Assembly: GCA_951812955.1 (NCBI GenBank)
Contig: OX638340.1
Coordinates: forward strand, 2,464,001-2,528,000
DNA from: an uncultured Gemmatimonadota bacterium
Lineage (GTDB): Bacteria; JAAXHH01
DNA: 64,000 nt
Direction of reading: 5' to 3'
Positions within the stretch are counted from its first letter, which is position 1, and each line of letters opens with the position of its first letter. Shown here piece after piece: positions 22,496-64,000 of the stretch. The notes beneath the pieces are model-generated. The model saw only the letters and a list, made by a program, of their open reading frames with translations. It was not told the DNA's origin and made no database searches. The translations under genes and the position numbers were made by a program.

Positions 22496-25185
<2,690 letters not shown>

Positions 25186-26306: not shown

Positions 26307-27437
26307 TTAACTTTCCGGTTCGGTCGTTCTAAAGGGCATGATCAGGCACTGGTAGTCCTCGCCCTCCGCTTCTTCTTTGGAAGGGGTGATGATCCCCGCG
26401 CTGACGGGTGAATCGAGTTTGAAAACCACTTCGTCGCTCTCGATCCGTTCCACGACATCGAGCAGATACCGGAAGTCGTAGGTCGTATCCATGGCTTCAC
26501 CTTCGTATTCGGCCGGCACTTCCTCCCGGGCTTCTCCGCCGATGTCATGGCTGGACGAACTCAATTCGACGAACCCCGGCCGGAACGAATACCGAATCTG
26601 CCGGGTGGAGGGGTTGGACAGGACGGACACCCGACGGACGGCGCTTTCCAGTTCTTCGCGGTTCACCTTGACCACCTTGTCGTTCCCCGTGGGAATAACC
26701 CGTTCGTAATCCGGATAGGTCGCTTCGATCAGCCTGGCGAACAGCTGGGCGTTCTCGAGTTCGAAATGGACGTGGTTCTGGCCGATCGTGATGCGGGACG
26801 GCGTATCCGATTCTCCGATGAGGCGCGAGAGGTTGTTCAGCGCTTTTGGCGGCACGATGATCCCCTCCGTGCCCTCATCGGAAACATCACAGGGGAGGGT
26901 CGTCTTGGCCAGGCGGTGCCCATCGGTTGCCACCATCCGGACGGCGCCTCTGCCTATGCGCAGGAAAGCGCCCCACAGACTCGGGTGTATCTCGTCCTTC
27001 GATACCGCATACACTGTCTTGCGGATCAACCGCTGCAACGAAGACGCCGGCAGGGAAATGGTCTGATCCGAAGGCAGATCGGGCATCGCCGGGTACTCTT
27101 CCTTGCTGATGCCCACCAGGCGGAACACCCCCCTGTCGCACCTGACCGTCACCTTGACCCCGTCCACCTCGATATCCACGGGCGCATCTGGTAACTCGCG
27201 CACCATCTCCGCGAATTTCCTTCCGGGCACCGTGATAGAGCCTCCCTCCGTTATCTGGGCGGGTATCTTCGTCACGATGAATATATCCAGATCGGTGGCC
27301 CCTATCGTCAGGTGGCCATCTTCGGTCTCGAGCAGCAAGTTGGACAGGATGGGCAGGGTGGACTTCGGTGGGACGACATTCAGGACGGTCTGTATACCGC
27401 TCATCAGCGTGGAACTGGCCGGTATGGTGATCTTCAC
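26307..27437 (-). CDS. dnaN: DNA polymerase III beta sliding clamp (GTG start with AAGGAG SD; the upstream ATG of the ORF track is rejected)
   Basis: VKITIPASS...TLPILSNLLLE is typical of DnaN; AAGGAG 7 nt upstream of the GTG. Confidence 0.9.
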   Translation of the reverse strand: MKITIPASSTLMSGIQTVLNVVPPKSTLPILSNLLLETEDGHLTIGATDLDIFIVTKIPAQITEGGSITVPGRKFAEMVRELPDAPVDIEVDGVKVTVRCDRGVFRLVGISKEEYPAMPDLPSDQTISLPASSLQRLIRKTVYAVSKDEIHPSLWGAFLRIGRGAVRMVATDGHRLAKTTLPCDVSDEGTEGIIVPPKALNNLSRLIGESDTPSRITIGQNHVHFELENAQLFARLIEATYPDYERVIPTGNDKVVKVNREELESAVRRVSVLSNPSTRQIRYSFRPGFVELSSSSHDIGGEAREEVPAEYEGEAMDTTYDFRYLLDVVERIESDEVVFKLDSPVSAGIITPSKEEAEGEDYQCLIMPFRTTEPES

Positions 27438-27599
27438 AGAGGTACTCCTTTGGGCAATCGTCGCCGGTTGCCTTGTTCGATGCACTCGGCATGGAATGAA
27501 CAAAGGCCGCAATTTGTACAGTAACCTTTTACCACTATTGAATATTATAAAGAAAACAGGAGGCAGTACGCAAGGGATTTGTGAGGCAAATCCTACTTC

Positions 27600-28140
27600 A
27601 TGTTGTATAACGGCGTGGGTAGTCCACTGAAAAAGTACAATATATTGTGTATATGTATTAATATAGTATGAGTATATAAGAAAGACATAATACTAATAAA
27701 GGATGTGGATATGTGCATAAGTGCGTCATATGGATGATAACCACCAATTAAATCAGTTAATTACGTAAAAAACACCATGTGGAAAAAGTAGCACCTAAAC
27801 AGATGTTTATCCACACTTATCCACACACTAAAGACCAGGTACGGCAAAAACACCCGTTTATACACATTGCATCGACAATTCCTATACCCTTATCCCCCGG
27901 GTTATCCACATTAAATACAGCCCCGAATGGGCCTGTTGCGTACATGAACTGACCCGCACCGCTACGTGGCCGTTCCGTCCGGATCGGAAGCCTATCCACA
28001 TCGAGGTCGGATTCCCGTAGTGGATAGGTGTGGAAACTTCGGAAACACAGCGAGTAAACTCTTGTCGGAGAGGAGGTTATGATAGTCTTATATTGTCAAC
28101 AAAATGTGGATAACCACCAACTTATCCACATCGTGGTGGG
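27600..28140. promoter_or_regulatory. oriC: oriC: DnaA-box cluster plus AT-rich DNA unwinding element between dnaA and dnaN
   Basis: perfect TTATCCACA at 27807-15, 27817-25, 27902-10 and 28122-30; TGTGGATAA at 28105-13; one-mismatch boxes at 27704-12, 27982-90 and 28019-27; about 70 bp of near-pure A/T at 27636-27700. Confidence 0.7.
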
Positions 28141-28180
28141 GGAATTGCCTGGTTGGAGAGGGTGTTGAACGGCAGGCGGG

Positions 28181-29542
<1,362 letters not shown>

Positions 29543-29796
29543 TGCGTATTACCTTGTGGACCGAAGGAAATGGAATGCCCGTGAACGGACCGGTGGAATC
29601 CCGGTCCGAAAACATACTCGTACGCTCGCATGTTACATGCTAAATTGTTGTAATTACTACATTTAAGGTGGTGTTTGGTACTACAACAAATCCACGGCAG
29701 GCGGAAACGTTGCGGGTAGTATCTGAACAATAGTATGTAACGCGAAGCGGGTGCTGTCAAGATTAATATCGAAAAGATTTGCGCCTTCTCGATTAC

Positions 29797-29825
29797 CAAA
29801 AACAACTTGACAAAATCGCGATCGC
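29797..29825 (+). promoter_or_regulatory. sigma70 promoter for rpmH (TTGACA, 17 nt, TATTAT)
   Basis: hexamers read directly about 60 nt upstream of the rpmH start. Confidence 0.5.
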
Positions 29826-29884
29826 CCGGTATTATCGAGGGCTGTTATTTTTAAGAAAAAAGCAGGAAATACCGGGAGTAAACG

Positions 29885-30019
29885 ATGAAGCGGACCTTTC
29901 AACCGAGCAATCTCAAGCGGCACCGCAGGCACGGCTTTCGTCGAAGGATGAGCACCAAGGCGGGACGGCTGATTCTGAATCGCCGCCGCGCCAAGGGAAG
30001 GACCCGCGTTGCCGTTTAG
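29885..30019 (+). CDS. rpmH: 50S ribosomal protein L34 (44 aa); absent from the ORF track
   Basis: [44 protein letters not shown]. Confidence 0.85.
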
Positions 30020-33973: not shown

Positions 33974-34000
33974 TGTTCCACGTGAAACAGGGGCCATGCA

Positions 34001-35923
34001 GTGGGTGGAATTGATCAGCTGACAAAGGTCGAAGTCCTCGTCATCGGCGGCGGTCACGCGGGATGTGAAGCCGCGCTGGCGTCGGCCAGAATGGGCGTGG
34101 AAACTGCGCTCGTTACGCTCGACGCCTCGAAGATCGGACAGATGTCCTGCAATCCCTCCATCGGCGGCCTGGGCAAGGGCCAACTGGTGCGGGAGGTGGA
34201 CGCGCTCGGAGGGGAGATGGGCAAGGCCGCGGACGCGACGGCCGTTCAGGTCAAGATGCTGAACACGCGCAAGGGACCGGCCGTCCAATCCCTGAGATCA
34301 CAGAATGACCGGGTCGCTTACAGGGATTACATGCAGCGGGTCATTGGGGAGACGCAAAACCTGACGGTAGTGGAAGGTGAGGTATCGCAGCTGGAAGTCA
34401 ACCGAAGCCGCATTGCGGGAGTCTGGACTAGCGACGGCCGTAGCATCTCATGCCGGGCCGTAATCGTCGCTTCCGGCACATTTCTGAACGGGGTCATGCA
34501 TCGGGGTGCGAGCAACGCGCCCGGAGGACGCCTGGGTGAAAAAGCGGCAACCGAACTGTCGGATTCCCTGCGCGACCTCGGGTTCAATATCGGCAGGCTG
34601 AAGACCGGAACACCACCTAGAATTGATGGTAACACCATAGATTACAGCAAGTTGGATATAATACCAGGCGACGAGTTCCCCGAACATTTCTCCCAGGAAA
34701 GACTTTCACCTGCCGATGAACAACTGCCGTGTTACCAGACGTTTACGAACGTCCGAACCCACGAAATAATCCGGTCCGCCCTGGATCAGTCTCCCATGTT
34801 CTCTGGACGGATAACTGGCCGCGGTCCCAGGTACTGTCCGTCGGTAGAGGACAAGATCGTGCGCTTCCCGGACAGGGATAGTCACCAGATCATACTGGAA
34901 CCTGAGGGATGGAACACCGACGAGGTATATGTAAACGGATTCTCCACCAGCCTGCCGGAACCGATCCAGGATCTCGCGCTGCACACGGTAAAAGGCCTGG
35001 AAAAGGCGGAGATCGTCCAGTTCGGATACGCCGTAGAATACGATTTCATTCCACCGGAAAACCTGACCCGGACTCTTGAAACGCGCCAGGTCGCCGGCCT
35101 GTTCCTTGCGGGACAGATCAATGGAACAACGGGATATGAAGAAGCCGCGGCACAAGGGATTTTCGCTGGCATTAACGCCGCATTGGCGGTACGGAAACGT
35201 CCCGGGTTTACCCTTGACAGGGGTGAGGCTTATATCGGTGTGATGATAGACGATCTCATCACAAAAGGTGCGGACGAACCCTACCGGATGTTCACTTCAC
35301 GTGCCGAATACCGGTTGCTGCTGAGGCATGACAACGCGGACATGCGATTATCGGATCGTGCTTTCGAAGTCGGAGTGATCTCAAAAGAACGTCACGAAAC
35401 CACGGTCCGCCGGAGACGGTTGGTGGAAGGGGAAACAGAACGGCTGAAACGGATATTTGTAGCCCCGGACGCCATAAACGGCATACTGAAGGCCAGGTCC
35501 TCGATGCCGGTCACGGAACCGATGTCGTTGCACAAGCTATTGTCCCGCCCCGAGATACAATACACGGATCTGTATCCCGTGGACCCTGCACCAATGGACC
35601 ACGAGCCATCGGTCATCGGGCAGATACAGACTGCGGTCAAATACGCGGGGTACCTGGACCGCCAGAAAAAAGAGATTGAACGCATGCGGACCTGGGAATC
35701 CCGTGGGATCCCTTCTGACTTTGATTACGCATCGATCCGGGCCATGTCACACGAGGCGCGAGAAAAACTGACTGAAATCAGACCAGCAAACGTGGGACAG
35801 GCGTCTAGAATACCTGGCGTGACGCCGGCTGATCTGTCCATTCTTGTTGTGCATCTGGAACGCCGAAATTCAGTTCGCCGCAATGAAAAACAGGTGTTCC
35901 ACGTGGAACAATCGAAAACATGA
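34001..35923 (+). CDS. mnmG: tRNA uridine 5-carboxymethylaminomethyl modification enzyme MnmG (GidA)
   Basis: FAD motif [17 protein letters not shown]; 640 aa. Confidence 0.9.
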
Positions 35924-50951: not shown

Positions 50952-51076
50952 GAGCTGCTGTTTCTCTCCATAAAGTGAAGGCGGTCGACAGGATGAGAGG
51001 CTGAATCCGGTGATATGGGTTTTCCACCAGGATTACCTGCTTACTAAGCCATTTCGCTCACCGGTTGCGATATCCT

Positions 51077-51769
51077 TTAGTCCCCCACGATCTTCCCGTC
51101 ACGCAGTCGCAGGATCCGGTCGCAGTGCCTGGCGACGTGCTCTTCATGGGTCACCAGCACGATCGTATGTCCGTCCCCGTTCAGGCGATCGAATATCGCC
51201 ATGACCTCCTCCCCGGTCCCGCTGTCCAGGTTTCCGGTGGGTTCGTCCGCCAGAATGATGGACGGTTCGTTGACCAGCGCACGGGCGATGGCCACACGCT
51301 GGCGTTGTCCGCCGGACATCTCGTTGGGCCGGTGGCGGGCCCGGTCGGCGACACCCACCGCGTCCAGGGCCTCCATGGATCGTCGACTCCTTTCCATTCT
51401 GTTCATCCCACGGTAGAGGAGCGGCAATTCCACATTGCGCAGGGCGTCCATTCTCGGAAGCAAGTTGAAAGCCTGGAACACGAACCCGATCTTGCGGTTC
51501 CGGATGAAAGCCTGTTCATCGTCCGAAAGGTCTCCAACCGGTCTGCCGTCAAGTTCGTAGCTGCCCGCCGTCGGCGTATCCAGGCAACCCAGGATGTTCA
51601 TCAGGGTGGATTTCCCGGAACCCGACTGCCCCATCACAGCTACGTACTCACCCCGGTCTATGGTGGCGGAGACGCCCCGGAGCGCGGTAATGCGGTCGCC
51701 TCCCATGGGGAAGGACTTATGCAGGTTTACGATGGAGATAAGGGACGAGGAACGGATGGATCGATGCAC
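51077..51769 (-). CDS. ABC transporter ATP-binding protein (MacB/LolD type), GTG start
   Basis: Walker [10 protein letters not shown], signature [15 protein letters not shown]; AGGAAG SD before the GTG. Confidence 0.85.
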
Positions 51770-51812
51770 GACGGCTTCCTGTGACCGGGTGTGTGATTCG
51801 GTTCTATACAGG

Positions 51813-51843
51813 TATAGTCGTGGTTAAATGGGAAATCTCGTAC
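51813..51843. repeat. copy 1 of a conserved ~30-nt element (TATAGTCGTGGTTAAATGGGAAATCTCGTAC), 44 nt upstream of the ABC ATPase start
   Basis: three near-identical copies in the window (see also 53613-53644 and 58476-58506). Confidence 0.6.
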
Positions 51844-51913
51844 GGGTTGCTGAATTGACAGGGTGTTCTCAATACCTGGAGTATGTTGTCAATACAAATG
51901 GTAACCAGTTGGG

Positions 51914-52597
51914 TTGACGGGACGTTTGCATCTCTATACCATAGTCGTTGCCCCTAATCATGAAATTGCCCCTGACCAAGGAACCAGTGACATGTCCGCT
52001 CCCGCCTCACGCATGAATGCCCGGCTATTTCTTTACGCAGCTGTCGCAGCCCTCGTCGCATTTAGCATCACCCTCTTCTGGCGCAATTATCAACAAAATC
52101 AAGACCTTCAGATTCTGCAGCATGGGCTATACAACGCCCAGGTAGAAATCCGCGTGCTGCAGGCGACCAATATGTTCGGGGCGCCCTTTATCACCCCCTT
52201 CCCCATGGTCGACCAGCACGGCCAACCTGCTGCATTACCGAATTTCGGTAATGGTCACCTGCTCCTCCTGTTTTTTAATGCGACGCATAGTCCATTTCGC
52301 CTCGACCTGATGTCTACATTTGGGTCGGTGATCGGAGACAATGTCCCGGTTATCGGCATTCTCCAGGCAGAATCGGCCGAGGAGATCTCGCCGATCGTGG
52401 ATCAATTCAGGTACAGCTTTCCGGTGTATCTGGCCGTCGATTCGCCCTTTGATCTGCCGTTTACACCCTACTGCGTGCTGATCGATGGATCCGGCAACGT
52501 GGTACACCTGTCACCCATCGCACCCGTCGGGTCCGCCGATACCCGATCGGTGGAGGCACTTATTTCGGAATTTGCGCAGTTGCTAGAGGGCGGGTAA
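51914..52597 (+). CDS. membrane-anchored TlpA-like thioredoxin-fold protein lacking the CxxC motif (probable start at the internal Met about 51992)
   Basis: TM helix then a redoxin-like fold with LLLLFFNATHSPF in the position of the WCxxC active site. Confidence 0.45.
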   Translation: MTGRLHLYTIVVAPNHEIAPDQGTSDMSAPASRMNARLFLYAAVAALVAFSITLFWRNYQQNQDLQILQHGLYNAQVEIRVLQATNMFGAPFITPFPMVDQHGQPAALPNFGNGHLLLLFFNATHSPFRLDLMSTFGSVIGDNVPVIGILQAESAEEISPIVDQFRYSFPVYLAVDSPFDLPFTPYCVLIDGSGNVVHLSPIAPVGSADTRSVEALISEFAQLLEGG

Positions 52598-52681
52598 GCC
52601 TTTTGCGCAACCTGGTGTGAAGTATCACCGGGCACCCGAAATGACGAATATGTACAATGTAAAACAAGGAGTAGCCTGATC

Positions 52682-53176
52682 ATGATCACTATTCACAAGG
52701 TGTTAATGGTATTATTGGTCCTGTCTGTAACCGCTTGTGGCGATGATGGTCAACCGAAGCAGGCAGGTCAATCGCAAATGGCTGGCCAACCGGACCAGGT
52801 TGGTCAAACGCCAACGGCAAGCCGACCGGACCCTGTGGCCGACCAGAAAGCTGGTATTTATCGGCCCACTACGGTGGACACGAAAGCTGAGATTGTTTAT
52901 TTTCCCCCTGTTCCCACCGACGTCGTCGATCTCGAATTCGATGGCCTCACAGTGATACAACTCGTTGTTGGTACTAATGGCAATGTAGACACGGCATTCG
53001 TCGAAAGATCGTCAGATCGCGTTTCTGTGGACTCTCTGATGCTGGACGTGGCTAAAAAAATGGTCTGGACGCCGGCAGTACATGACGGTGCCCGGGTAAA
53101 GATGCGAACCTCGATCCCGTTTATGTTCAAGATACCCACTCCAACCCCTGGCGAGGAGACCGTCACCGAGGAATAA
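52682..53176 (+). CDS. lipoprotein with a TonB C-terminal-like domain
   Basis: lipobox LSVTAC; Pro/Gln-rich linker; C-terminal about 90 aa TonB_C-like. Confidence 0.5.
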   Translation: MITIHKVLMVLLVLSVTACGDDGQPKQAGQSQMAGQPDQVGQTPTASRPDPVADQKAGIYRPTTVDTKAEIVYFPPVPTDVVDLEFDGLTVIQLVVGTNGNVDTAFVERSSDRVSVDSLMLDVAKKMVWTPAVHDGARVKMRTSIPFMFKIPTPTPGEETVTEE

Positions 53177-53534
53177 GGATCAACGTGAGATACCCCGCAG
53201 ATCGACCGTGAATGCCCTCGTCTTATCAAACCTGCTGTTTCGTTTCGAAGGAGTTACATATCCGGGCGAAGGCCCAAGCAGGCCTTCTATCCGGGAATTA
53301 CGCACGCCCAGGTGCGCAATCCGTTTTTCAATCTACGAAACCCGCTCATCAAGGTGGGCGATACGGTCGCCCAGGCGTATATCGAGTTGAGATATGCGGG
53401 TATCGAGGCTGCGCCAGACAAAGAGCAGGATCCCGATTGCGACGACATTGCTTATGACGTTTGTGGCGTCCACGATCATCTCTTGACTATGTTATTTAAA
53501 AAGTTCCAGCTTCGACATCCTTCGATCTACCTGG

Positions 53535-53612
53535 TTCTGCCAGAACCGGATTGGCCCGAAACGGCCACGTATTCGCCCCGGTTAATGGTGGCGTATACAC
53601 CCCGCAACGCGG
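53535..53612 (-). pseudogene. 5'-deleted fragment of an ABC ATPase gene paralogous to 51077-51769
   Basis: about 75% nt identity to 51640-51700 (codons 26-58 of the intact ATPase) with frame-breaking indels; joined directly to element copy 2, implying a ~115-nt deletion that removed the start codon. Confidence 0.5.
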
Positions 53613-53644
53613 TATAGTCGTGGTTTGGTGGGAAATCTCGTAAC
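53613..53644. repeat. copy 2 of the conserved ~30-nt element
   Basis: TATAGTCGTGGTTTGGTGGGAAATCTCGTAAC. Confidence 0.6.
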
Positions 53645-53793
53645 AAAAGGCTTTGACAAGGAAAGTGTAAGTGTCGTTCGAATGAAAGAGCATTGTACTG
53701 TGGTCAGGAGGTAATTACTTACCATAGACCCGAACGGCTGAAGCAAATGGTGCTAAGAAACAACCACAATCAGAAGTGTTACTTGCTACTGCC

Positions 53794-56193
53794 TTATTCT
53801 GCTTTGAGTGCATCAGCAGGATTCGCCGTCGCGGCTTTCAGCGCATGGTATCCGACCGTAAACCAAGTGATCGTAAGCGCGGCGAGCCCCGTGAGAATGA
53901 ACATCCACAAACCTATTTCGATACGGTACGGAAAACCTTCCAGCCACCCCTGCATGATGTAGTAACTGATAGGTACGCCAAGAACGAGAGCGATCAGGAT
54001 CAGCCAGGTAAAGTCCTTCGACAACAGCAGGATGACGTTCGAAACCGTCGCACCGACTGCCTTGCGAACGCCGATCTCCCTGGTCCGCTGTTCGGCCATG
54101 TAGGACGCCAGTCCCAACAAGCCCAGACAGGCGATCAGAATGGAAAGCGTCGCTCCGGCGATGAAGACGGACCCCAGCCGTTGTTCGGCGGCGTACTTTT
54201 GCTCGAGATCCTGGTCGAGGAAGTAGAATTCCATGGCGGGATGGTTCGGATAGGTTTCGCGCCACTGGTCCTGCAGTATTTCAAGTCCCTGGGTAAGGCT
54301 CTGGCTGCGCAGCCTGGCTACCATCGTATTGCCACCTTCCCAAAACAGAATCAAAAGCGGTTCAATGCGTTGGTGTAGCGTATGGTAGTGGAAATCCGCC
54401 ATGACGCCGACAACGTGCATTGGAGGATAGTCGGGTGTATGGGTATAGGTAAACGTCTTACCAATCGGGTCTTCCCATCCAAAAGACCTGGCAGCCGTTT
54501 CGTTGATAAGAACTGAGTAGTTGTCCGAAGCGACTGCGCGAGAAAACGTACGTCCCGATATTATCTCGATGCCCATTGTTTCTACGAAGTCGAAACCGGT
54601 CCAGATTGTGGGGATGAGCGGGGTATCCTCCACGATATATCCTTCCGGCTGAATGAAACTGGTAGCAGTTAGTCTGCCGGGCACGCTGGTTGTTGTGCTC
54701 AGGTTTACGATTTCAGGATACTGCATCACCTTGTTCCGGAAGGCCGGGAAACCCTGGACGGTCTCATAATCAGGCAGTCGTATAACTACCACGTGCTCTT
54801 TATCGAATCCCAGTTTCTTGTTTCCGATGTACTCCAGTTGCTCCAGTATAACCAACATTCCGACGATCATGATGATCGAGACGACGAACTGGAAGGTGAT
54901 CAGCGCTTTTCTGATAAGCGACGGTGAAACTCCCGTCTTCAACGCTCCGCTAAGTACGACAGCCGGCCTGAAAGAGGAAAGTACGAGGGCTGGGTATCCT
55001 CCGGCGATAATCCCGGTACAAAGTGCGATGGCCGCCAGGGCCGGCATCAGCCACGTGGATTGATAATCCATCTCCAGTGCCTTTCCCGAAAACCGGCTGA
55101 ACTCGGGCAGGAGCAGGTGTACCAGTGCCAGCGCCACGGCCAGGGCGATGAAGGCGAAGAAAACCGACTCGCCGATGAATTGCCCGATCAACTGGACCCG
55201 CTGGGCGCCCAGCACTTTCCGAATACCGACCTCCTGCGCCCGTCGTGCCGAACGGGCCGTGGATAGGTTCATGAAGTTCACGCAGGCGATCAGCAACATG
55301 AATATAGCCACCGAGGTGAAGATGTAGACATATCGAATGTCGCTGTTCGCTTTTATCTCAAGTTTGAAATTGGAGTGCAGATGGATATCGGTGAGCGGCT
55401 GCAGATAGGGTCTGAATTCCATGCCCAGCGTCTCCAGTCGTTCACCGAGGTGCCTTACCGGAAACTGGGGAAGTTTGTCTTCCAGGTCTTCCGGCGCGTA
55501 TCCCTCTTGAATCAGGAGATAGGTATACAGGGTTCTGTCCATGTTCTGGATCGTGGTCGGCTCGTTGTATATCCCGCTCGCCGAGAGAGTGGAAAACGAA
55601 GCAAGAAAGTCGGCGCGAAAATGCGAGTTCTTTGGCATATCGCGCATGATGCCCGTGACGGTAAACATGTAGATTTCGTCTGCGGAAATCACTTTCCCAA
55701 TCGGGTTCTCATTCCCGAAAATCATCTCCGCCATGGTTTCGGAAACGACAACGGTATGGGGTTTAGTCAGGGCCGTCTGGGGATTGCCCTGAACCAGAGG
55801 GAAGGTGAAAATGTCAAATACGGTTGAATCCGCAAAAATGAAGTATTTCTCCTCATAACTTTTTTCTTCGTAACCAATGAGCCAACTGGAATCCGGCGGC
55901 TTCCACCGGGTGAACTGCTCAATTTCTGGATACTCCTCCTTCAGGACCGGACCCCACGCTGATGGCGTCCTCGCCCATTCGTCCGTTCTGCCTTCCGCGG
56001 TACCAGATACCACTATTCGGTAAATCCGGTCTTTGCGCTCGTGGTGCTGATCGTAACTGAGCTCGTCCTCCACGTAGAGCAGGATCAGAATGCAGGAAGT
56101 CAGACCGATGGCCAGACCCAGGACATTAATCGTGGAATAGCCCCTGTGCCTGAACAGGTGCCTCAAAATGACGGTAACGTAGTTTCTGAACAT
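53794..56193 (-). CDS. ABC transporter permease with two FtsX domains (MacB-like, about 800 aa)
   Basis: MacB_PCD-like N-terminus and two four-TM FtsX modules. Confidence 0.85.
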   Translation of the reverse strand: MFRNYVTVILRHLFRHRGYSTINVLGLAIGLTSCILILLYVEDELSYDQHHERKDRIYRIVVSGTAEGRTDEWARTPSAWGPVLKEEYPEIEQFTRWKPPDSSWLIGYEEKSYEEKYFIFADSTVFDIFTFPLVQGNPQTALTKPHTVVVSETMAEMIFGNENPIGKVISADEIYMFTVTGIMRDMPKNSHFRADFLASFSTLSASGIYNEPTTIQNMDRTLYTYLLIQEGYAPEDLEDKLPQFPVRHLGERLETLGMEFRPYLQPLTDIHLHSNFKLEIKANSDIRYVYIFTSVAIFMLLIACVNFMNLSTARSARRAQEVGIRKVLGAQRVQLIGQFIGESVFFAFIALAVALALVHLLLPEFSRFSGKALEMDYQSTWLMPALAAIALCTGIIAGGYPALVLSSFRPAVVLSGALKTGVSPSLIRKALITFQFVVSIIMIVGMLVILEQLEYIGNKKLGFDKEHVVVIRLPDYETVQGFPAFRNKVMQYPEIVNLSTTTSVPGRLTATSFIQPEGYIVEDTPLIPTIWTGFDFVETMGIEIISGRTFSRAVASDNYSVLINETAARSFGWEDPIGKTFTYTHTPDYPPMHVVGVMADFHYHTLHQRIEPLLILFWEGGNTMVARLRSQSLTQGLEILQDQWRETYPNHPAMEFYFLDQDLEQKYAAEQRLGSVFIAGATLSILIACLGLLGLASYMAEQRTREIGVRKAVGATVSNVILLLSKDFTWLILIALVLGVPISYYIMQGWLEGFPYRIEIGLWMFILTGLAALTITWFTVGYHALKAATANPADALKAE

Positions 56194-56323
56194 GACGTAT
56201 TATCAGTGCCGATTTATGGACGATCGTAGAGATCGCTTAATAGCGTGCTCGACTATGTTCAGAGTGCTTTCCACGTGCAAAGTGCTTCGGTTTTCGTAAT
56301 CTGGATGCCCCGTCCATCGTCGG

Positions 56324-58198
56324 TCAACCATGTTCAGAGTCCTTCAGCACTTCAATTTTGGTCTGTCCGCTTTCCGTAGCGATTACGACATCGGTATTCC
56401 CATATTCATAGGTTGTCCCTAACGACATTCTAATGTTATTACTCGACCATGCATTGAGAGGCATCAATTCCTTTACCTCTTCATACTTCAGTACACCGCA
56501 ACGGGTATGCATAACCAAGCTGGTAGTTTTCGCTGCTTTTTCGCTTAACGCCAGTATCAGGTTGCCGGAAACGGTACGGAGGTTGCACCTGCCCCTTCGA
56601 ATACCGTCAGTGTAGCACAGCCGAGTGGTGCCATAGCGGTTGAAAATGGAAACATCTCCATTTAGATCACGTGCATCCAACACAGTACGACCGACTTCCA
56701 TATCCACACCGCCACTGATTGACTCGATCTTTCCTTCCCACTGATCTGGGCGTGCTAACATGTCGTGATCCAAGCTGCTTCCCCCACAGCCGTACATACG
56801 CTGATATACCAATCCGCTTACCTGTCGTATTTTGGAGAACTCGCTGTTGAAAAGATAGACATCTCCTGTGATTCCCTGTATATGGCAGGAATAGCAGGAA
56901 TACATTAAAAGTGAACCTTTCAAACCATCCACATTGACCTTATTGGATCTGAAAACCGACATTCTCATCCCGGCGGGAACCGAAATCGACATATGGCAAT
57001 ACGTGGCATGGCCGAATAGATTCGTTTCGTCGGTACAAACAGCTTCGAAAATATCCTCGACATTGCCTGACACGGTCGCTCTCGGCAATTCTATGGGTCG
57101 TACATTCGAAGTGTGAACAGTGATACGTAGTGATTTCCCCAGACTGTTTCCCACAGGTTTCGGCAGGGGCAGAAATCCGTCGACTTCATGCTTCAAATCT
57201 GGAAACATGTCGACCGTTCTTACACCGCCGACATTATCCTCCAGCACGCGGTCATTAATCAGATCACTTCTCCAGAATTTACTGATTGGCGACGTAGCGG
57301 CTACGTAATCAGATCCATAAGGGTTGCTGGTACCAAGAAACAACGCCCCTTCGTGGGGGCCTGTTTCCAGGTAGTTGGCGACCTGGTCATGAGATATATG
57401 AAAGCCGCTGAGGTTGCTTCGCGATTCTTCTTCCGTCAGACCCAACGCGATCTTCGAACCTTCAACAATAACCTGTTTTCCCTGTGCCTGCTTAATATCG
57501 ACCTCCGTATTCACGCCGCAGTAGAGGACAATGTTTTTCGTGTCTCCCATGTCTATGGTTTCACTGAAATCTTCTCTGGCGATCTTGCAGACCACATCCT
57601 GTACTTCATCGGTCACATCGATCTGGCTCATGGCGATGGTCTCCTTTTCCTGAGGCGACAGTGCTGCTCTCAGCCGGATCCGGGACTGGAATAGCCGTCC
57701 TTTCACCGTCGATTCGGGAATGTCCAGAAACGAGGCGATTTCCTTCAGTGAAAAACCGGTGTAGTAGTACAAATTGACGATCTGGCGATAGTGTTCGGGC
57801 AGTCTCTCGACTTCATCCCAAAGCTCGAGACACTCGAGGTATTCCCGATGGATCTGGTCCGCCAGGGGGAATTCGTCGCGCATATGTTCAGCATCCGGAT
57901 CGACTCGGACCAGACGATCAACCTTCTTCCGACGGCGCGATTCCTTGCATCGGTTGACGACGATTCTGTGAAACCAACTACCGAAAACGGCCGGGTCCTT
58001 CAATTGCGACAACTTGCAGTAAGCGGCAACGAATGCATCCTGTACCACGTCCTCCGCGTCTGTTCGATCCCGAAGGAATCCCAGCGCTACGGCGAAAGCG
58101 GCGTTCTGGTACCGCCGGACCAGCGGCTCGAAGGCGTCGGCGTTTCCCTGCAGGCACTGCAGGATGCTGTAAGTGTCGTCGTGTGTTGTTTTCGCCAT
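56324..58198 (-). CDS. ECF sigma factor (about 185 aa, regions 2 and 4) fused to a ~430-aa C-terminal extension of unknown function
   Basis: sigma-2 DAEDVVQDAFVAAY...FGSWFHRIVVNRC and sigma-4 LYYYTGFSLKEIASFLDIPESTVKGRL; no TM; conserved Cys cluster YCHMSI...CYSCH. Confidence 0.75.
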   Translation of the reverse strand: MAKTTHDDTYSILQCLQGNADAFEPLVRRYQNAAFAVALGFLRDRTDAEDVVQDAFVAAYCKLSQLKDPAVFGSWFHRIVVNRCKESRRRKKVDRLVRVDPDAEHMRDEFPLADQIHREYLECLELWDEVERLPEHYRQIVNLYYYTGFSLKEIASFLDIPESTVKGRLFQSRIRLRAALSPQEKETIAMSQIDVTDEVQDVVCKIAREDFSETIDMGDTKNIVLYCGVNTEVDIKQAQGKQVIVEGSKIALGLTEEESRSNLSGFHISHDQVANYLETGPHEGALFLGTSNPYGSDYVAATSPISKFWRSDLINDRVLEDNVGGVRTVDMFPDLKHEVDGFLPLPKPVGNSLGKSLRITVHTSNVRPIELPRATVSGNVEDIFEAVCTDETNLFGHATYCHMSISVPAGMRMSVFRSNKVNVDGLKGSLLMYSCYSCHIQGITGDVYLFNSEFSKIRQVSGLVYQRMYGCGGSSLDHDMLARPDQWEGKIESISGGVDMEVGRTVLDARDLNGDVSIFNRYGTTRLCYTDGIRRGRCNLRTVSGNLILALSEKAAKTTSLVMHTRCGVLKYEEVKELMPLNAWSSNNIRMSLGTTYEYGNTDVVIATESGQTKIEVLKDSEHG

Positions 58199-58475
58199 AG
58201 GGTAGTTGTCGTCTTAAGGGTTTCGTACAAAATCAGATAATAAGGAAGCGTTACATAGAATAAGATGACCTTGCGGCCTCAACGGTTAAAAACAAAATCG
58301 TGTATATGGTGGCGGTCAGGTCTCGAAGAGTTGAAATACGGCCTATCCCCTCATGGAATGACCTTTCGAGACCGACAACGCAGATTTTGGGGTCGATTCG
58401 TATCGGTAGGTTCAGATTCAAAAGGATGCACGACTCATGACCGGTATCGGAAGCGTATTCAACTTCCTATCACGC

Positions 58476-58506
58476 ATAGTCGTGGTTTGGTGGGCAATTT
58501 CGAACG
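58476..58506. repeat. copy 3 of the conserved ~30-nt element, between the two sigma-fusion paralogs
   Basis: ATAGTCGTGGTTTGGTGGGCAATTTCGAAC. Confidence 0.6.
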
Positions 58507-58537
58507 TACAGTTACCTGCGGGGTTCGAGACTTAAAC

Positions 58538-60412
58538 TCACTTCATCGCGTCGGGGCCATCTGACAACTCGACTTCGGCGGTGCCACTTTCTGTAAGGAG
58601 CAGATAGTCCGCGTGCGTTGTATCATACGTAGTTCCGGCCGTGATGCGATGCCCGTCGTTATATGTCGAATAGAGCCGCATCACGTCCTTTGCCTGACCC
58701 AATTTCAAGACGCCACAACGCGTATACATCACAACGCTGACCGTCTTTGCGAGTCTTTCATCCAGAACCAGCTTTGCCTCGCCAGAGACGGTCCTGAGGT
58801 TACAACGAGTTCCGGATTCCCGGGATGACTGGTACAAGCGGGTTGTACCGAATCGGTTGTAAATGGATACGTCACCCTCCAGGTCCTGCGCGTCCAGCAC
58901 GAAACGGCCGACATCGATATCCACACTGCCCTTTATATTGGATAGTTTTCCTTCCCACACATCCGTGTTGCGTATCATTCCGTCAAGGTAGCTCGCGGCG
59001 CCGTATTCATACATTCGCTGACAGAACACACCGCCTACTTCATGTATATCCGAAAACATGCTGTTGAACAGGTACACATCCTTCGAGATACCGGTTATCT
59101 GGCAGGAATGGCAGGCATACACCATCAAGGAACCGTTCAATCCCTCCGCGTTGATCCGCTTCGCCTTGAACACCGAAATGTTCTTTCCGGCCGGGACCTC
59201 AATAGAAACATGACAGTACGAGGCCGGTCCGAAAACCTTGGAATCATCGGACCAGTAAACCTGGAAAACATCCTTGATGCTTTCCGTCATGGCGGAGTTC
59301 GGTACATGAATCGGCCGTACTTCCATCGTGTGAACCGAAATCCGTATTGATTTGCTCAAGCTCGCACGCGCCGGTTTTGGCAGCGGAGGAAACGTATCGA
59401 TATCGTCTTTAAGATCCGGGTACAGATCGACCAATCTCACCCCGTTACAAACTTCGTCCAGCATCCAGTCGTTCATCAGATCCCGTCTCCAGTGGTCGCT
59501 GATCCGTTTGGTCATAGCTGCGTTTTCGCCACTGGTTGAATCTACACCGACAAAAAGCTCACCTTCATGGGGACCGGCTTTATAGAAATCATCGACCGTA
59601 TCGTGGGAAACGGCAAATCCGCCAAGGTTGAGGGTTGCCTCTTCTTCGCTAAAACCAAGCGCGATCTTCGAACCTCTCACAACAACCTGTTCTCCTTGCG
59701 CCTGCTTAATCTCAACCTCCGTACTCACGCCGCAATAGAGGACGATGTTCTCTACGTCGCCCATGTCGATCGTTTCTACAAAATCCTCCTTGGCGATCCG
59801 GCAGACAACATCCTGGACCTCTTCGGTTACGTCGATCTGGCTCATGGCAATGGTCTCCTTTTCCTGTGGGGACAACGCCTCTCTCAGCCGGATTCTGGAC
59901 TGATAGAGGCGTCCCCGCGCCGTGGATTGCGGAATGTCCAGAAAGGCAGCGATTTCTTTCAGTGAGAAGCCGGTGTAGTAGTACAACGTGACGACCTGGC
60001 GATAAAGTTCCGGGAGCTGCTCGACTTCATCCCAGATTTCGAGACGCTCGATGTATTTTTGATGGATACGATCCGACATAGCGAATTCATCGCGAGATTC
60101 TCCAGAAACCGTATCGACGCGGACTTGACGACCGATTCTGCTTCGTCGGACCAGCTCCTTGCAACGGTTGACAACGATTCGGTGAAACCAACTGCCGAAA
60201 ACGGCCGGGTCCTTCAACTGCGACAGCTTGCAGTAGGCGGCCACAAAAGCATCCTGTACCACGTCCTCCGCGTCTGTTCGATCCCGAAGGTAACCCAGAG
60301 CCACGGCGAAAGCGGCATTCTGGTACCGCCGGACCAGCGGCTCGAAGGCGTTGGCGTTTCCCTGCAGGCACTGGCGGATGTTATAGGTATCGTCGTGTAT
60401 GAGAGTGGTCAT
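58538..60412 (-). CDS. paralogous ECF sigma factor fused to a ~430-aa C-terminal extension
   Basis: same architecture and length (624 aa) as 56324-58198; N-terminal 185 aa nearly identical. Confidence 0.75.
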   Translation of the reverse strand: MTTLIHDDTYNIRQCLQGNANAFEPLVRRYQNAAFAVALGYLRDRTDAEDVVQDAFVAAYCKLSQLKDPAVFGSWFHRIVVNRCKELVRRSRIGRQVRVDTVSGESRDEFAMSDRIHQKYIERLEIWDEVEQLPELYRQVVTLYYYTGFSLKEIAAFLDIPQSTARGRLYQSRIRLREALSPQEKETIAMSQIDVTEEVQDVVCRIAKEDFVETIDMGDVENIVLYCGVSTEVEIKQAQGEQVVVRGSKIALGFSEEEATLNLGGFAVSHDTVDDFYKAGPHEGELFVGVDSTSGENAAMTKRISDHWRRDLMNDWMLDEVCNGVRLVDLYPDLKDDIDTFPPLPKPARASLSKSIRISVHTMEVRPIHVPNSAMTESIKDVFQVYWSDDSKVFGPASYCHVSIEVPAGKNISVFKAKRINAEGLNGSLMVYACHSCQITGISKDVYLFNSMFSDIHEVGGVFCQRMYEYGAASYLDGMIRNTDVWEGKLSNIKGSVDIDVGRFVLDAQDLEGDVSIYNRFGTTRLYQSSRESGTRCNLRTVSGEAKLVLDERLAKTVSVVMYTRCGVLKLGQAKDVMRLYSTYNDGHRITAGTTYDTTHADYLLLTESGTAEVELSDGPDAMK

Positions 60413-60442
60413 GTTGAATCAAATCGAAGTCTGAATGCAGTT

Positions 60443-61441
60443 TTAGTCGAGATATGCATCAAAAGCCGCCAGCAGTGAAGGATAGTAATCTTCGAAGGTC
60501 ATATCTTGAATATGATGCTGCTCGAAATCCTCAAGTGCTCGAATAAGGGCGGGGAGGTAGTGAAACCCCTTTTCTATATCTCGCACGAGTAAACGATCAC
60601 CGTGTTTTGGACCCGTTTCTCTATGAAACAATCGAGACGTAATGGCGCGTATCAAATGTTCGTTCAAGCATATCTCCCAAGCCCCATAGCCACCCGCCTT
60701 AGCCATTTTATCTAGTATCGGGTCCAACAATGAGGCGTACTTCCCGATGTCAGGGCGATGTCGTTCAGTAACGGGATTAACGAACGAATGGCCGAACTCA
60801 TGCCAGATGAGTTCCAGCAATTCGTCTCTTGTTCCATACACCGGAATACCTTCAACCGATCCGACAGGCCCTATCACGCTGAATATGGACAGCCTGTTAT
60901 CAGGATGTCGGACTCGAGGTCCGATCCCACCGTGTTGAAACAAGGGGCTCAAAACCAGGTTGTAGTCACGATGTCGCATTCCATAGTATTGTTCCAAGAC
61001 GTCGATCAAATTCTCACTGCCCAGTGTTTGAAAAACTGTGTCAATTAAGGATTTGTAGTACGTGGTTTGGCTTTCAAAAAAAGTACCAAAGTCCGATTGG
61101 ATCGCAAAATCACTCAGTAGTTTGTAGAATGTTCGAAACCGGGTTTCGCCTTGAAATGCTCGAATGTAGTATTCGTAGTTTTCGTACGGGAATATAGGTG
61201 TGAGTCCCGGCAGTTCCGACAGCGACAACACCGGACCCAGGTAGGCGTCCGAGTAAGTACCATTCTCTGTGATTTTCCTAAACAGCTTGACTGCCTCATG
61301 CGTTTTGAATGGCGAAAAGTAATCCCGCATGTACTGGGAATACGCCACATCGTACCTGGTTAGTCCTTCATAGTCGCACAGCAACTTTATAGTGATGACA
61401 AGTTCAATTCTGGGATCTACGTCGATGCTCAGCCTGGTCAT
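60443..61441 (-). CDS. HExxH-motif (WHEFGH) putative zinc metallopeptidase-like protein, cytoplasmic
   Basis: 332 aa; no signal peptide; ELLELIWHEFGHSF. Confidence 0.5.
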   Translation of the reverse strand: MTRLSIDVDPRIELVITIKLLCDYEGLTRYDVAYSQYMRDYFSPFKTHEAVKLFRKITENGTYSDAYLGPVLSLSELPGLTPIFPYENYEYYIRAFQGETRFRTFYKLLSDFAIQSDFGTFFESQTTYYKSLIDTVFQTLGSENLIDVLEQYYGMRHRDYNLVLSPLFQHGGIGPRVRHPDNRLSIFSVIGPVGSVEGIPVYGTRDELLELIWHEFGHSFVNPVTERHRPDIGKYASLLDPILDKMAKAGGYGAWEICLNEHLIRAITSRLFHRETGPKHGDRLLVRDIEKGFHYLPALIRALEDFEQHHIQDMTFEDYYPSLLAAFDAYLD

Positions 61442-61503
61442 CTCTATTTCTCCGTGCTCGGCGAAAGGAGTCGGTATATCTCGACCGAGGATACCGAATG
61501 CAC

Positions 61504-62394
61504 TTACCGTCCGTACCCGCTTTCTTTAAAAAAACGTAGCGCATCGGGGCCGTCCTTTATGGCCAGAATGTCCTCAATAGCCGCCTTTTTATCAGCCCTC
61601 TTCTCGTAGTATGCTTCACATATCTTGTACCCTACGTAGTATCCAAGGTCAGCAGGCCTTGCTCCCGTGCCGCTGCCGCCGTTGTAGAGCCATTTGCTCA
61701 TATCGGTTTGTAACATTTCATTCGAGAACGATTCCCACAATTCAGTTTCGTGCGCCTCTCCATACACGTGCAAATGAGGGTTGATGTGTTTTCCAGTTGC
61801 TAACTCTCCAAGGAAATCGGCAGCACCTTCGAGTATGGAGTGACCCAGTAGTGTGTTTTCTCCAAAATCATAGGCCTGTTGAGTGTGTATAAGTTCGTGG
61901 ATAACGATAAATGGAATCTCTTCTACCGGTTTGAGGACTTCAAGATACCATTCGTTCAGTTCGTCCGAAGGAAGATCGTCCGTCCGGCACCAAATTTCGG
62001 TCCCGATCAGCAGCCCATTGCTCGACGTTGTTCCGCCGGAGGTCATTTTGCCAATCATAAAGTACACATCTGGAAAATCTGCCTTACTGTATAGTTGCTT
62101 CCAGTTGTGCATATACCCACGGATCTGATCGGTCAAATCCAACACACGGTTTGAACTCTCTCTTATAGAAGCGTAATACCTCGGTCGGGCTTCGATTACC
62201 TTGACCAACTCATCCGCACTCTCGATTCTGGATTCGATGAAATCTTTTAAACCGATACTGCCCTTTGCGAAGTACTCCGATTCGAAGATGTTTATCATTT
62301 CTTCTGTAGTCTTGCCTTCTGACAGGTCGTACGCCAGCCAGAAACGATCGATATCGGAAGTAACCAACCGGACGTCGTCGGGATCGTTACTCAT
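61504..62394 (-). CDS. HExxH-motif (IHELIH) putative zinc-dependent protease-like protein (DUF2268-like)
   Basis: 296 aa; no signal peptide; FIVIHELIHTQQ...GENTLL; GGGAGG SD. Confidence 0.5.
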   Translation of the reverse strand: MSNDPDDVRLVTSDIDRFWLAYDLSEGKTTEEMINIFESEYFAKGSIGLKDFIESRIESADELVKVIEARPRYYASIRESSNRVLDLTDQIRGYMHNWKQLYSKADFPDVYFMIGKMTSGGTTSSNGLLIGTEIWCRTDDLPSDELNEWYLEVLKPVEEIPFIVIHELIHTQQAYDFGENTLLGHSILEGAADFLGELATGKHINPHLHVYGEAHETELWESFSNEMLQTDMSKWLYNGGSGTGARPADLGYYVGYKICEAYYEKRADKKAAIEDILAIKDGPDALRFFKESGYGR

Positions 62395-62796
62395 TGAGGA
62401 AAACCTCCCTGTTTGCTGAGCATAGGCTATTGCGAAACTCGTACCAGCAGAAATACCAACAAAGGACCATGCACGTCTCGAATCTCGTTGAGTTCATAAC
62501 AGACATGATCATGGGTCTAGTTTTCCTTTGCCAGTCTGCACCCTGTGAAGAAGTCTGAATCGGTCGACCGTATGTTGACCGTACATGGTTTACAGGTGTT
62601 GATTGCCCGATGAGGGACATAACCCTCTGATAGTTTAGACGCTTCAGTACTCCAATTGATCAAAATCGAATTTGTTGGTTCTGTGAATTTGCAAATGAGA
62701 AGTCCACACACGATCATAAGAGGGACATTTACACATCGTACGTTTTGTCCTCAATTTCGTGGTCTGGTTGTTCACTGTATACACCCCACCGCATCA

Positions 62797-62824
62797 TTGA
62801 CACCGGCACCGATTCCCTTATATT
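62797..62824 (+). promoter_or_regulatory. sigma70-like promoter (TTGACA, 16 nt, TATATT) for the redoxin gene
   Basis: read directly in the AT-rich intergenic region. Confidence 0.4.
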
Positions 62825-62908
62825 CTATATATAGGTATTACTACATATAAAAAGGATCACGAGAGCAGGCTGAATACCATTAGCATTTCAAACTGAACAG
62901 GAGTAGTC

Positions 62909-63403
62909 ATGGCGTTCCTGGAAGCCGGGGTCGCGGCCCCGGAAGTCACCCTGGAAGACGCGGACGGACAATCGACGTCGCTGGCCGACCTGACTAACGG
63001 CGGCTGGTTGCTGGCCGTCTTTTACAAGGTGGGCTGCGGGACCTGCAAGTTCAGCGCCCCCTATTTCGAGAAGATCCACCAGGCTTACGGCGGCAAGCAG
63101 GGATTCCGGGTGCTCGGTGTCTCGCAGGACACGCCGGAGGACACCCGCGCTTTCATGGACGAACACGGCGCTTCCTTCGAGAACGTGTACGACGCCACCC
63201 ACTGGGCCTCCGCGGATTTCGGCCTGACGAACGTGCCGACGTGGTTTCTCATGGACGAAAACGGCGGCATACTGGACAGCAACACGGGCTTCTGCCGGAC
63301 CGACCTCAACGAGTTGTCGGTGACCGTCGCGGCCCATCTCGGCGAAGAGGCCGTTGTCATTTCGCCGGGGGACGACGGCGCGCCCGAACTGAAGCCTGGA
63401 TGA
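62909..63403 (+). CDS. thioredoxin-fold thiol-disulfide oxidoreductase (TlpA/redoxin family) with a CxxC motif
   Basis: WLLAVFYKVGCGTCKF. Confidence 0.65.
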   Translation: MAFLEAGVAAPEVTLEDADGQSTSLADLTNGGWLLAVFYKVGCGTCKFSAPYFEKIHQAYGGKQGFRVLGVSQDTPEDTRAFMDEHGASFENVYDATHWASADFGLTNVPTWFLMDENGGILDSNTGFCRTDLNELSVTVAAHLGEEAVVISPGDDGAPELKPG

Positions 63404-63644
63404 GGCTCCAAACAACCGGTCGGGCCTCGACCGTAACCCGGACATAAGAAAACGAAACCTGGAAGGCGGCCGCTTCGGCCCGGATCGAATGTTCCCGGCG
63501 CCGGAGGGTCGCTTTTTGTTCCTGTAGAGCGCAAATGATGCCGGTAAATCTGACGTCATGCCGGCCACGGTAGCGCTGAACCATACGAATCTTCACGCGT
63601 CGACCTCAGGATCACGTGCATCACAGCGGGAACATCAAGGAACC

Positions 63645-64000
63645 ATGAGCGAATCGACTACATCCCACGTCCCCAAGCCCCCGTGGCTCAAGGTACGCCT
63701 GAAGCAGGGGCCGAACTTTCGGGAACTGAAGCGCCTGGTCGGAGACAACCGGCTTCACACCATCTGCGAGAGTGCCCAGTGCCCGAATATCTGGGAATGC
63801 TGGGAGCAGCGGACCGCCACCTTCATGATTCTGGGAGATATTTGCACGCGAAGCTGCGGGTTCTGTGCGGTGAAGACGGGCCGGCCGGACAAGGGGCTGG
63901 ACTGGGACGAGCCCGAGCGCGTGGCCGGGGCCGTGGAGAAGCTGGGCCTGCGGTTCGCCGTGATCACCTCGGTCAACCGGGACGAGCGGACCGACGGCGG
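63645..64000 (+). CDS. lipA: lipoyl synthase, 3'-truncated by the window end
   Basis: PKPPWLKVRL...CESAQCPNIWECW...CTRSCGFCAV radical-SAM and auxiliary cluster motifs. Confidence 0.85.
   Translation, partial: MSESTTSHVPKPPWLKVRLKQGPNFRELKRLVGDNRLHTICESAQCPNIWECWEQRTATFMILGDICTRSCGFCAVKTGRPDKGLDWDEPERVAGAVEKLGLRFAVITSVNRDERTDG

Follow-up and report, generated by a model that had tools for sequence, protein, structure and literature searches.

A very probable DnaA-dependent replication origin in the dnaA-dnaN spacer of an uncultured Gemmatimonadota-labelled bacterium

The dnaA-dnaN locus and its relatives

We analysed 64,000 nucleotides of contig OX638340.1 (assembly GCA_951812955.1, positions 2,464,001 to 2,528,000) from an uncultured bacterium labelled Gemmatimonadota; this whole stretch is referred to below as the window, and all coordinates are positions within it. 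Our subject is a 743-bp non-coding spacer (27438-28180) between dnaA and dnaN, in which an earlier note on this DNA had placed the chromosomal replication origin (oriC). The two genes flanking the spacer lie on the minus strand, and the locus comprises the following features.

27631-28130, no strand: proposed oriC, consisting of a DnaA-box array, an unwinding module and a DNA unwinding element (DUE)
28181-29542, minus strand: dnaA, replication initiator, 453 amino acids (aa); Pfam DnaA_N, Bac_DnaA and Bac_DnaA_C
26307-27437, minus strand: dnaN, beta sliding clamp; three Pfam DNA_pol3_beta domains
24880-25185, minus strand: gene of the dciA family for a candidate helicase operator, part of the same operon-like cluster; Pfam DciA, E 1.4e-23

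The gene order on the minus strand is dnaA-dnaN-recF-dciA-gyrB-gyrA, and the plus strand carries rpmH (29885-30019), rnpA, yidC, mnmE, gidA and gidB, diverging from the dnaA side. Taken together, this is the classical, ancestral origin neighbourhood. Gene orientation switches at 29.5-29.9 kb, with both flanks transcribed away from the locus.

Comparison loci were chosen by the similarity of their DnaA. In a pattern-based scan of GTDB representative genomes the best DnaA identity was 49% among the matches listed. A protein collection yielded a close clade, with DnaA 88-93% identical to that of the window, from metagenome-assembled genomes (MAGs) labelled Gemmatimonadetes or Gemmatimonadota at NCBI, and the same collection yielded a sister clade with DnaA 59-67% identical. 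We compared ten close-clade loci (L081-L090) and four sister-clade loci (L091-L094). All fourteen have the same gene order and a dnaA-dnaN spacer of 520-790 bp.

A conserved array of DnaA boxes

Exactly five perfect DnaA boxes (TTATCCACA) occur in the window and all of them fall within 324 bp of the spacer (27807-28130). The chance expectation is 0.21 (mean of shuffles) and no shuffle out of 100 reached five. Moreover, the spacer holds 10 of the 18 boxes in the window with at most one mismatch, and no second DnaA-box cluster was found within the 64 kb, the region upstream of dnaA and the gidA/gidB region included. Reading from dnaA towards dnaN, the array is made up as follows; invariant columns and identities are explained below.

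28122-28130, plus strand: perfect DnaA box, 9/9 columns invariant in eight relatives
28105-28113, minus strand: perfect DnaA box, 8/9 columns invariant
28019-28027 and 28029-28037, minus strand: two adjacent two-mismatch boxes, GTTTCCACA and CTATCCACT; block identity 0.92 versus 0.65-0.73 for the flanks
27992-28000, plus strand: one-mismatch box CTATCCACA, identity 0.94
27912-27991, no strand: G+C-rich variable spacer between the two halves of the box array; identity 0.66, large indels among relatives
27902-27910, plus strand: perfect DnaA box, 9/9 columns invariant
27890-27898, plus strand: conserved two-mismatch box TTATCCCCC, identity 0.96
27858-27866, plus strand: one-mismatch box TTATACACA, identity 0.94
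27807-27825, plus strand: tandem head-to-tail perfect boxes (27807-27815 and 27817-27825) 1 nt apart, 15/19 columns invariant
27778-27786, minus strand: one-mismatch box TTTTCCACA, facing the DUE, identity 0.93
27704-27712 and 27712-27720, minus strand: DUE-proximal overlapping one-mismatch boxes TTATGCACA/tATCCACA, proposed loading boxes of a basal unwinding system (BUS); 12/17 columns invariant

The boxes form two internal groups of partly opposite orientation. The first comprises 28105-28130, an inverted pair of perfect boxes with 8 nt between them, together with 27992-28037. In the second, on the dnaN side, five boxes (TGTGGATAA) read toward dnaN (27807-27910), the box at 27890-27898 being co-oriented with that at 27902-27910 at a 12-nt spacing, and are followed by three that face the DUE. 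The earlier note had counted at least five perfect boxes and had singled out the head-to-tail pair at 27807-27825, both of which hold. It had also listed three one-mismatch boxes; such boxes are indeed present, but the count was too low, as there are five, starting at 27704, 27712, 27778, 27858 and 27992.

Phylogenetic footprinting was carried out on an alignment of eight close-clade spacers, from which column identity was computed for each element. Every DnaA box scored 0.92-1.00, compared with 0.50-0.79 for the stretches between boxes, and three boxes reached 8/9 or 9/9 invariant columns. The two-mismatch boxes at 27890-27898, 28019-28027 and 28029-28037 are kept as well as the perfect ones, and because of this the functional array is put at 13 sites or more. 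In the sister clade, the spacers contain 5-7 perfect boxes each. The origin elements are kept at the same locus in eight close and four sister-clade loci.

Two open reading frames (ORFs) that overlap both the box array and the indel-rich spacer were judged spurious. One is a 60-aa ORF at 27817-27999, which is not conserved, and the other is a 49-aa gene called in the spacer of one close relative (L084).

The unwinding element and its loading module

Between the box array and dnaN lies the least stable DNA of the window, joined to the DUE-proximal boxes by two short elements.

27631-27700, no strand: candidate A+T-rich DUE, least stable 70-mer of the 64 kb, 5.3 standard deviations from the mean
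27688-27699, plus strand: DnaA-trio array, four triplets, register kept among loci, identity 0.95
27700-27703, minus strand: 4-nt C-rich spacer (TCCT on the minus strand), always 4 nt, [TG][TC]C[CT]-like in 10/12 loci

By nearest-neighbour free energy the 70-mer at 27631-27700 has a dG of -69.4 kcal/mol, against a window mean of -105.3 (standard deviation 6.8), and the stability minimum of the whole window falls at the same place at scales of 30, 50, 70 and 100 bp. The A+T tract itself (27636-27700, 65 bp) holds the most A+T-rich 60-mer of the window. It had been described as an almost pure A/T tract on the dnaN side; its location and side were borne out, whereas at 83% A+T it is not almost pure. 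We infer that 27631-27700 would be the segment opened by DnaA.

Read in the dnaA-to-dnaN direction, the module is TTATGCACAtATCCACA-TCCT-TTA TTA GTA TTA, adjoining the A+T tract. Its two boxes, TTATGCACA and ATATCCACA, are co-oriented and overlap by 1 nt (start-to-start distance 8 nt), with the end of the proximal box 4 nt and that of the distal box 12 nt from the first trio. The trios read 3'-AAT AAT CAT AAT-5' on the plus strand. Of 12 loci drawn from the two clades, ten have 4-8 successive NTN triplets that begin exactly 5 nt past the box (offset +5), and this offset was the best of nine tried in each of those ten. Among close relatives the trio block has an identity of 0.95, compared with 0.72 for the A+T tract behind it. 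The overlapping-box arrangement is common to the window, the sister clade and loci of Bacillales and Clostridia. Moreover, dnaA-dnaN spacers of Bacillales, Enterococcaceae and Clostridium carry TTATCCACAtATCCACA, then 4 nt, then CTA CTA CTA TTA CTA, and with respect to dnaA and dnaN this series runs the same way as in the window.

This arrangement corresponds to the grammar of the BUS, established in Bacillus subtilis and found to work for several phyla, in which one or more boxes are followed by a short spacer, at least three 3'-NAN-5' DnaA-trios and then A+T-rich DNA (PMC6669920, PMC8287927, PMC10721633). We scored as DnaA-trios at least three consecutive 3'-NAN-5' triplets, the consensus being 3'-GAT-5'. 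The BUS has one or two co-oriented boxes, with a box lying within 16 bp of the trios (PMC8287927), and the orientation of the box relative to the trios is essential in B. subtilis (PMC6669920). In box distance, in having at least three trios and in orientation, the window module agrees with the BUS throughout.

The DnaA protein

Among solved structures, the best relative of the window DnaA is the B. subtilis protein of the BUS complex (8BTG, E 6e-114). When aligned with 8BTG, 1J1V and 2HCB, its Walker A motif, arginine-finger region and domain IV motif RDHTTVIHA are intact. The encoded protein is canonical, in keeping with the use of the standard box. Two features set it apart from more distant homologues and are common to both clades. 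In place of B. subtilis Arg202, the residue in contact with the trio guanine, the window protein has Ala (residue ~208), and the loop FFCKGHKDRTQEE (residues ~228-236) has a two-residue insertion beside the equivalents of Lys222 and Glu223. The idea that trio type co-varies with the Arg202-equivalent residue was rejected, as all members of the two clades have Ala, Asp or Ser there, irrespective of their trios.

The region upstream of dnaA

No DnaA box, even at two mismatches, was found in the 500 nt upstream of the window's dnaA, including the 342-bp dnaA-rpmH spacer (29543-29884), and none with at most one mismatch was found upstream of dnaA in any of seven close relatives. Three loci of the clade (L083, L084 and L089) have one to three two-mismatch matches in these 500 nt. 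Because boxes are missing upstream of dnaA, the origin of the close clade appears to be monopartite, a single unit downstream of the gene. In the four sister-clade loci the 190 nt preceding dnaA hold 3-4 perfect boxes, in addition to the downstream cluster. This implies that an upstream box cluster may have been lost (or gained) between the clades, possibly along with dnaA autoregulation.

To place the layout among bacteria at large, 72 diverse dnaA loci were scored by a crude criterion of at least three boxes with at most one mismatch within ~700-800 bp. Boxes lay on both sides of dnaA in 23/72 loci, downstream only in 9/72, upstream only in 16/72 and on neither side in 24/72, such that 32/72 have at least three boxes downstream. 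The dnaA-dnaN position is not unusual and is among the commonest layouts. In a Gemmatimonadaceae MAG (L053) and 23 other loci, neither side of dnaA had as many as three consensus boxes. The box scarcity of L053 means, therefore, that the architecture of the window is not common to all Gemmatimonadota-labelled genomes.

Comparison with known origins

The oriC of Actinobacteria such as Mycobacterium and Streptomyces is single, 0.5-1 kb long and placed in the dnaA-dnaN spacer of a G+C-rich genome, with many boxes of the TTGTCCACA type and the gene order dnaA-dnaN-recF-gyrB-gyrA. The proposed origin of the window is likewise single, long and between dnaA and dnaN, with the same gene order; unlike the actinobacterial boxes, those of the window are perfect to the Escherichia coli consensus. 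The earlier note had likened the layout to an Actinobacteria/Helicobacter type, and the actinobacterial half of that likeness is apt.

Perfect TTATCCACA boxes and box groups in opposite orientation are shared with E. coli oriC, and the DUE-proximal box of the window is oriented relative to the DUE as R1 is in E. coli. The window differs from E. coli in that the proposed origin has not moved away from dnaA, in its depletion of GATC and in having a single, poorly conserved IHF match. GATC occurs once in the 743-bp spacer compared with 7.7 times per kb in the window, and because of this depletion sequestration of the Dam/SeqA type is unlikely. The IHF consensus WATCARNNNNTTR has three matches in the window, of which the one in the spacer (27751-27763, plus strand) lies between the DUE-proximal boxes and the next box; being poorly or partly conserved in the alignment, it is not claimed as an IHF site. 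No CtrA sites were found in the spacer.

The plan is also like that of the incC region of B. subtilis oriC and of the Firmicute BUS. In both, two co-oriented boxes lie beside the DUE between dnaA and dnaN, followed by a 4-nt spacer, DnaA-trios on the strand that has its 5' end directed away from these boxes, and an A+T-rich tract (PMC6669920, PMC8287927, PMC10721633). In contrast to B. subtilis, the window has no box cluster of the incA/incB type upstream of dnaA, its trios are TTA TTA GTA TTA rather than CTA CTA CTA TTA CTA, with A or C instead of G as the first captured base, and its spacer is longer (743 bp) with more perfect boxes. Moreover, the candidate helicase operator at the window locus is of the DciA type, as opposed to DnaD/DnaB/DnaI.

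In Epsilonproteobacteria (Helicobacter pylori, Arcobacter, Wolinella, Sulfurimonas) oriC2 has its DUE on the downstream side of dnaA, and one or two DUE-proximal boxes are separated from the unstable region by about two helical turns (PMC5043019); the DUE of the window is likewise downstream of dnaA with DUE-proximal boxes. These origins are bipartite, with oriC1 upstream and oriC2 downstream of dnaA, and use a divergent box core, TTCAC; the Helicobacteraceae are moreover an exception to the ruvC-dnaA-dnaN arrangement, as dnaN is not the downstream neighbour (PMC5043019). Neither the bipartite origin, nor the TTCAC core, nor the displaced dnaN applies to the window. The Helicobacter half of the earlier comparison is therefore imprecise, H. 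pylori having a bipartite origin and a divergent box whilst the region upstream of dnaA is empty in the window.

Origin-proximal parS-like sites and GC skew

To the right of the spacer, at distances of 6 and 8 kb, are two parS-like sites, where 0.09 would be expected by chance.

33974-33989, no strand: parS-like site TGTTCCACGTGAAACA, one mismatch to the consensus, at the mnmE/gidA junction
35895-35910, no strand: parS-like perfect palindrome TGTTCCACGTGGAACA, two mismatches, at the gidA/gidB junction/overlap; syntenic copies in L081 and L082

The close and sister clades have such sites at the corresponding mnmE/gidA and gidA/gidB junctions, in synteny, and the two in the window are candidate origin-proximal parS sites. 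Neither parA nor parB was identified among the window ORFs scanned.

Starting at the left end, cumulative G-C over the 64 kb declines until it reaches a local minimum at 27249, after which it climbs as far as ~38 kb, the skew being -0.029 left of the spacer and +0.013 over 28-51 kb. It falls again after 52 kb, in a segment of lower G+C with minus-strand genes. The local skew is consistent with an origin here but is not decisive.

The right-hand end of the window (51000-64000) differs from the rest, with a G+C content of 0.47-0.55 compared with ~0.62 and a reversed skew, and makes the local skew curve less clear. Among its genes are two 624-aa paralogues whose N-termini are ECF-sigma-like (56324-58198 and 58538-60412), as well as one for a MacB/FtsX-type permease; the segment may be acquired DNA. 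A pair of one-mismatch DnaA boxes (TTATCCACG and TTATACACA, 3 nt apart, 61884-61904, minus strand) lies within a GldB-like/DUF2268 ORF; the rough chance of such a pair is ~0.02, and the second most A+T-rich tract of the window (62818-62880) is ~900 bp away.

Other elements in and near the spacer

On the dnaN side, two further conserved elements were recognised.

27635-27652, no strand: 16-nt near-palindrome ACACAATATATTGTAC at the edge of the DUE facing dnaN, perfect over the 12-mer 27637-27648; 15/18 columns invariant
27544-27592, minus strand: candidate dnaN control region of conserved blocks, with an inverted repeat (27574-27592), TTGCGT (27568-27573), 18 nt and TATAAT (27544-27549)

The near-palindrome occurs once in the window and is exact in seven close-clade loci, its flanks diverging; the sister clade lacks it. 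Within the origin it could serve as an operator or as a promoter element. The inverted repeat reads GGATTTG-CCTCA-CAAATCC (GGATTTG-N5-CAAATCC) and in relatives GGTTTTG...CAAAACC, so that two changes together preserve the symmetry. Either a protein operator or a hairpin could account for the repeat, and it and the near-palindrome could be control elements specific to the lineage. The case for a structured RNA in the dnaN leader was not convincing, the RNAalifold energy being -9.6 kcal/mol and its covariation term only -0.34. TTGCGT-18-TATAAT, which the inverted repeat abuts, may be the dnaN promoter, although a sigma-70 consensus scan of the spacer found no dnaN promoter. The real start of dnaN is the GTG at 27437, preceded by a ribosome-binding site (AAAGGAG) in a block with 10/11 columns invariant; the product is 376 aa, as called in relatives.

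Rfam at the gathering threshold and an ARAGORN tRNA scan gave no match anywhere in the window. A permissive Rfam scan of 27300-29950 returned a single sub-threshold match, to AsdA, the antisense RNA of Salmonella dnaA (29027-29077, plus strand, 29.1 bits against a gathering score of 52), which we dismissed as conservation of the dnaA coding sequence.

Interpretation

The placing of oriC between dnaA and dnaN is upheld by a non-random, conserved box cluster, a DUE at the stability minimum, an oriented box/spacer/trio module, a canonical DnaA and parS-like sites. The elements, with their order, spacing, orientation and conservation, can be read directly from the DNA. We consider it very probable that 27631-28130 is the monopartite, DnaA-dependent oriC of this uncultured Gemmatimonadota-labelled bacterium.

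Several points weigh against this assignment. The organism is uncultured and oriC has been assigned from sequence alone. A four-triplet NTN run is not significant by itself in A+T-rich DNA, and because of this the trio array draws its weight from the conserved register only. The trios are moreover of the 3'-AA-5' type and do not have the preferred G at the first position; an array made entirely of such trios works in B. subtilis but is sub-optimal (PMC10721633). The local minimum of cumulative G-C (-517) is matched by -519 at the right end of the window, and the skew is confounded by transcription, as the genes on both sides run away from the locus. Lastly, DnaA-box clusters are also known outside origins (PMC5043019).

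This last point allows for a different role, in which the cluster would be a regulatory or titration element only, controlling the dnaN promoter or serving as a sink like E. coli datA or the B. subtilis clusters, with replication starting elsewhere. A candidate dnaN promoter and conserved operator-like repeats do lie just past the DUE, and the skew evidence within the window is weak. However, neither a DUE nor a phased box/spacer/trio module is required for titration or operator function, and here both are present and conserved. Moreover, there is no alternative box cluster in the 64 kb, whether upstream of dnaA or in the gidA/gidB region, and it is here that the parS-like sites and the ancestral origin gene neighbourhood are located. 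We hold a purely regulatory role to be very improbable. An origin that is bipartite as in B. subtilis or H. pylori, with a second DnaA-binding sub-origin upstream and dnaA looped out, would find a precedent in the sister clade, where perfect boxes stand upstream as well as downstream of dnaA, and in the 23/72 diverse loci with boxes on both sides. Against it, the 500 nt upstream are free of boxes at up to two mismatches in the window and most of the close clade, and the two box groups of the downstream spacer, split by the G+C-rich spacer, could supply a looping partner internally. A bipartite origin in the window is scarcely to be expected.

If 27631-28130 is a monopartite oriC, DnaA binding, unwinding at 27631-27700 and helicase loading might proceed as follows. 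DnaA would fill the five perfect boxes and, cooperatively, about eight weaker conserved boxes over ~430 bp, and the overlapping co-oriented boxes at 27704-27720 would nucleate a filament of ATP-DnaA. This filament would cross the 4-nt spacer onto the plus-strand DnaA-trios (27688-27699), stretching and opening the A+T-rich DUE. The replicative helicase would then be loaded, presumably with the DciA encoded 2.5 kb away, and forks would leave leftward via dnaN-recF-dciA-gyrB-gyrA and rightward via dnaA and rpmH-rnpA-yidC-mnmE-gidA.

A more speculative scenario is that the clade turned an ancestral bipartite origin into a single enlarged one, lost box-mediated autoregulation of dnaA and gained a regulator of its own acting at ACACAATATATTGTAC and/or GGATTTG-N5-CAAATCC, with the filament maybe tuned to 3'-AA-5' trios by the two-residue insertion in the loop which, at the fork, contacts the trio strand. 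Taken jointly, these steps are rather unlikely.

In summary, we regard the locus as a DnaA-dependent origin of textbook type whose unwinding module resembles that of Firmicutes; it is built on the same plan as well-studied origins, and it brings no change to the concept of how origins work. It places an origin for an uncultured lineage in which DnaA identity to GTDB species representatives stays below 50% among the matches listed. Knowing the position would help in rotating MAG assemblies and checking them, and in estimating growth rates from coverage (peak-to-trough ratios). Moreover, with DnaA ~41-49% identical to that of other phyla, this is one more lineage beyond the Firmicutes in favour of the box/spacer/trio module being ancestral and conserved to single-nucleotide spacing.

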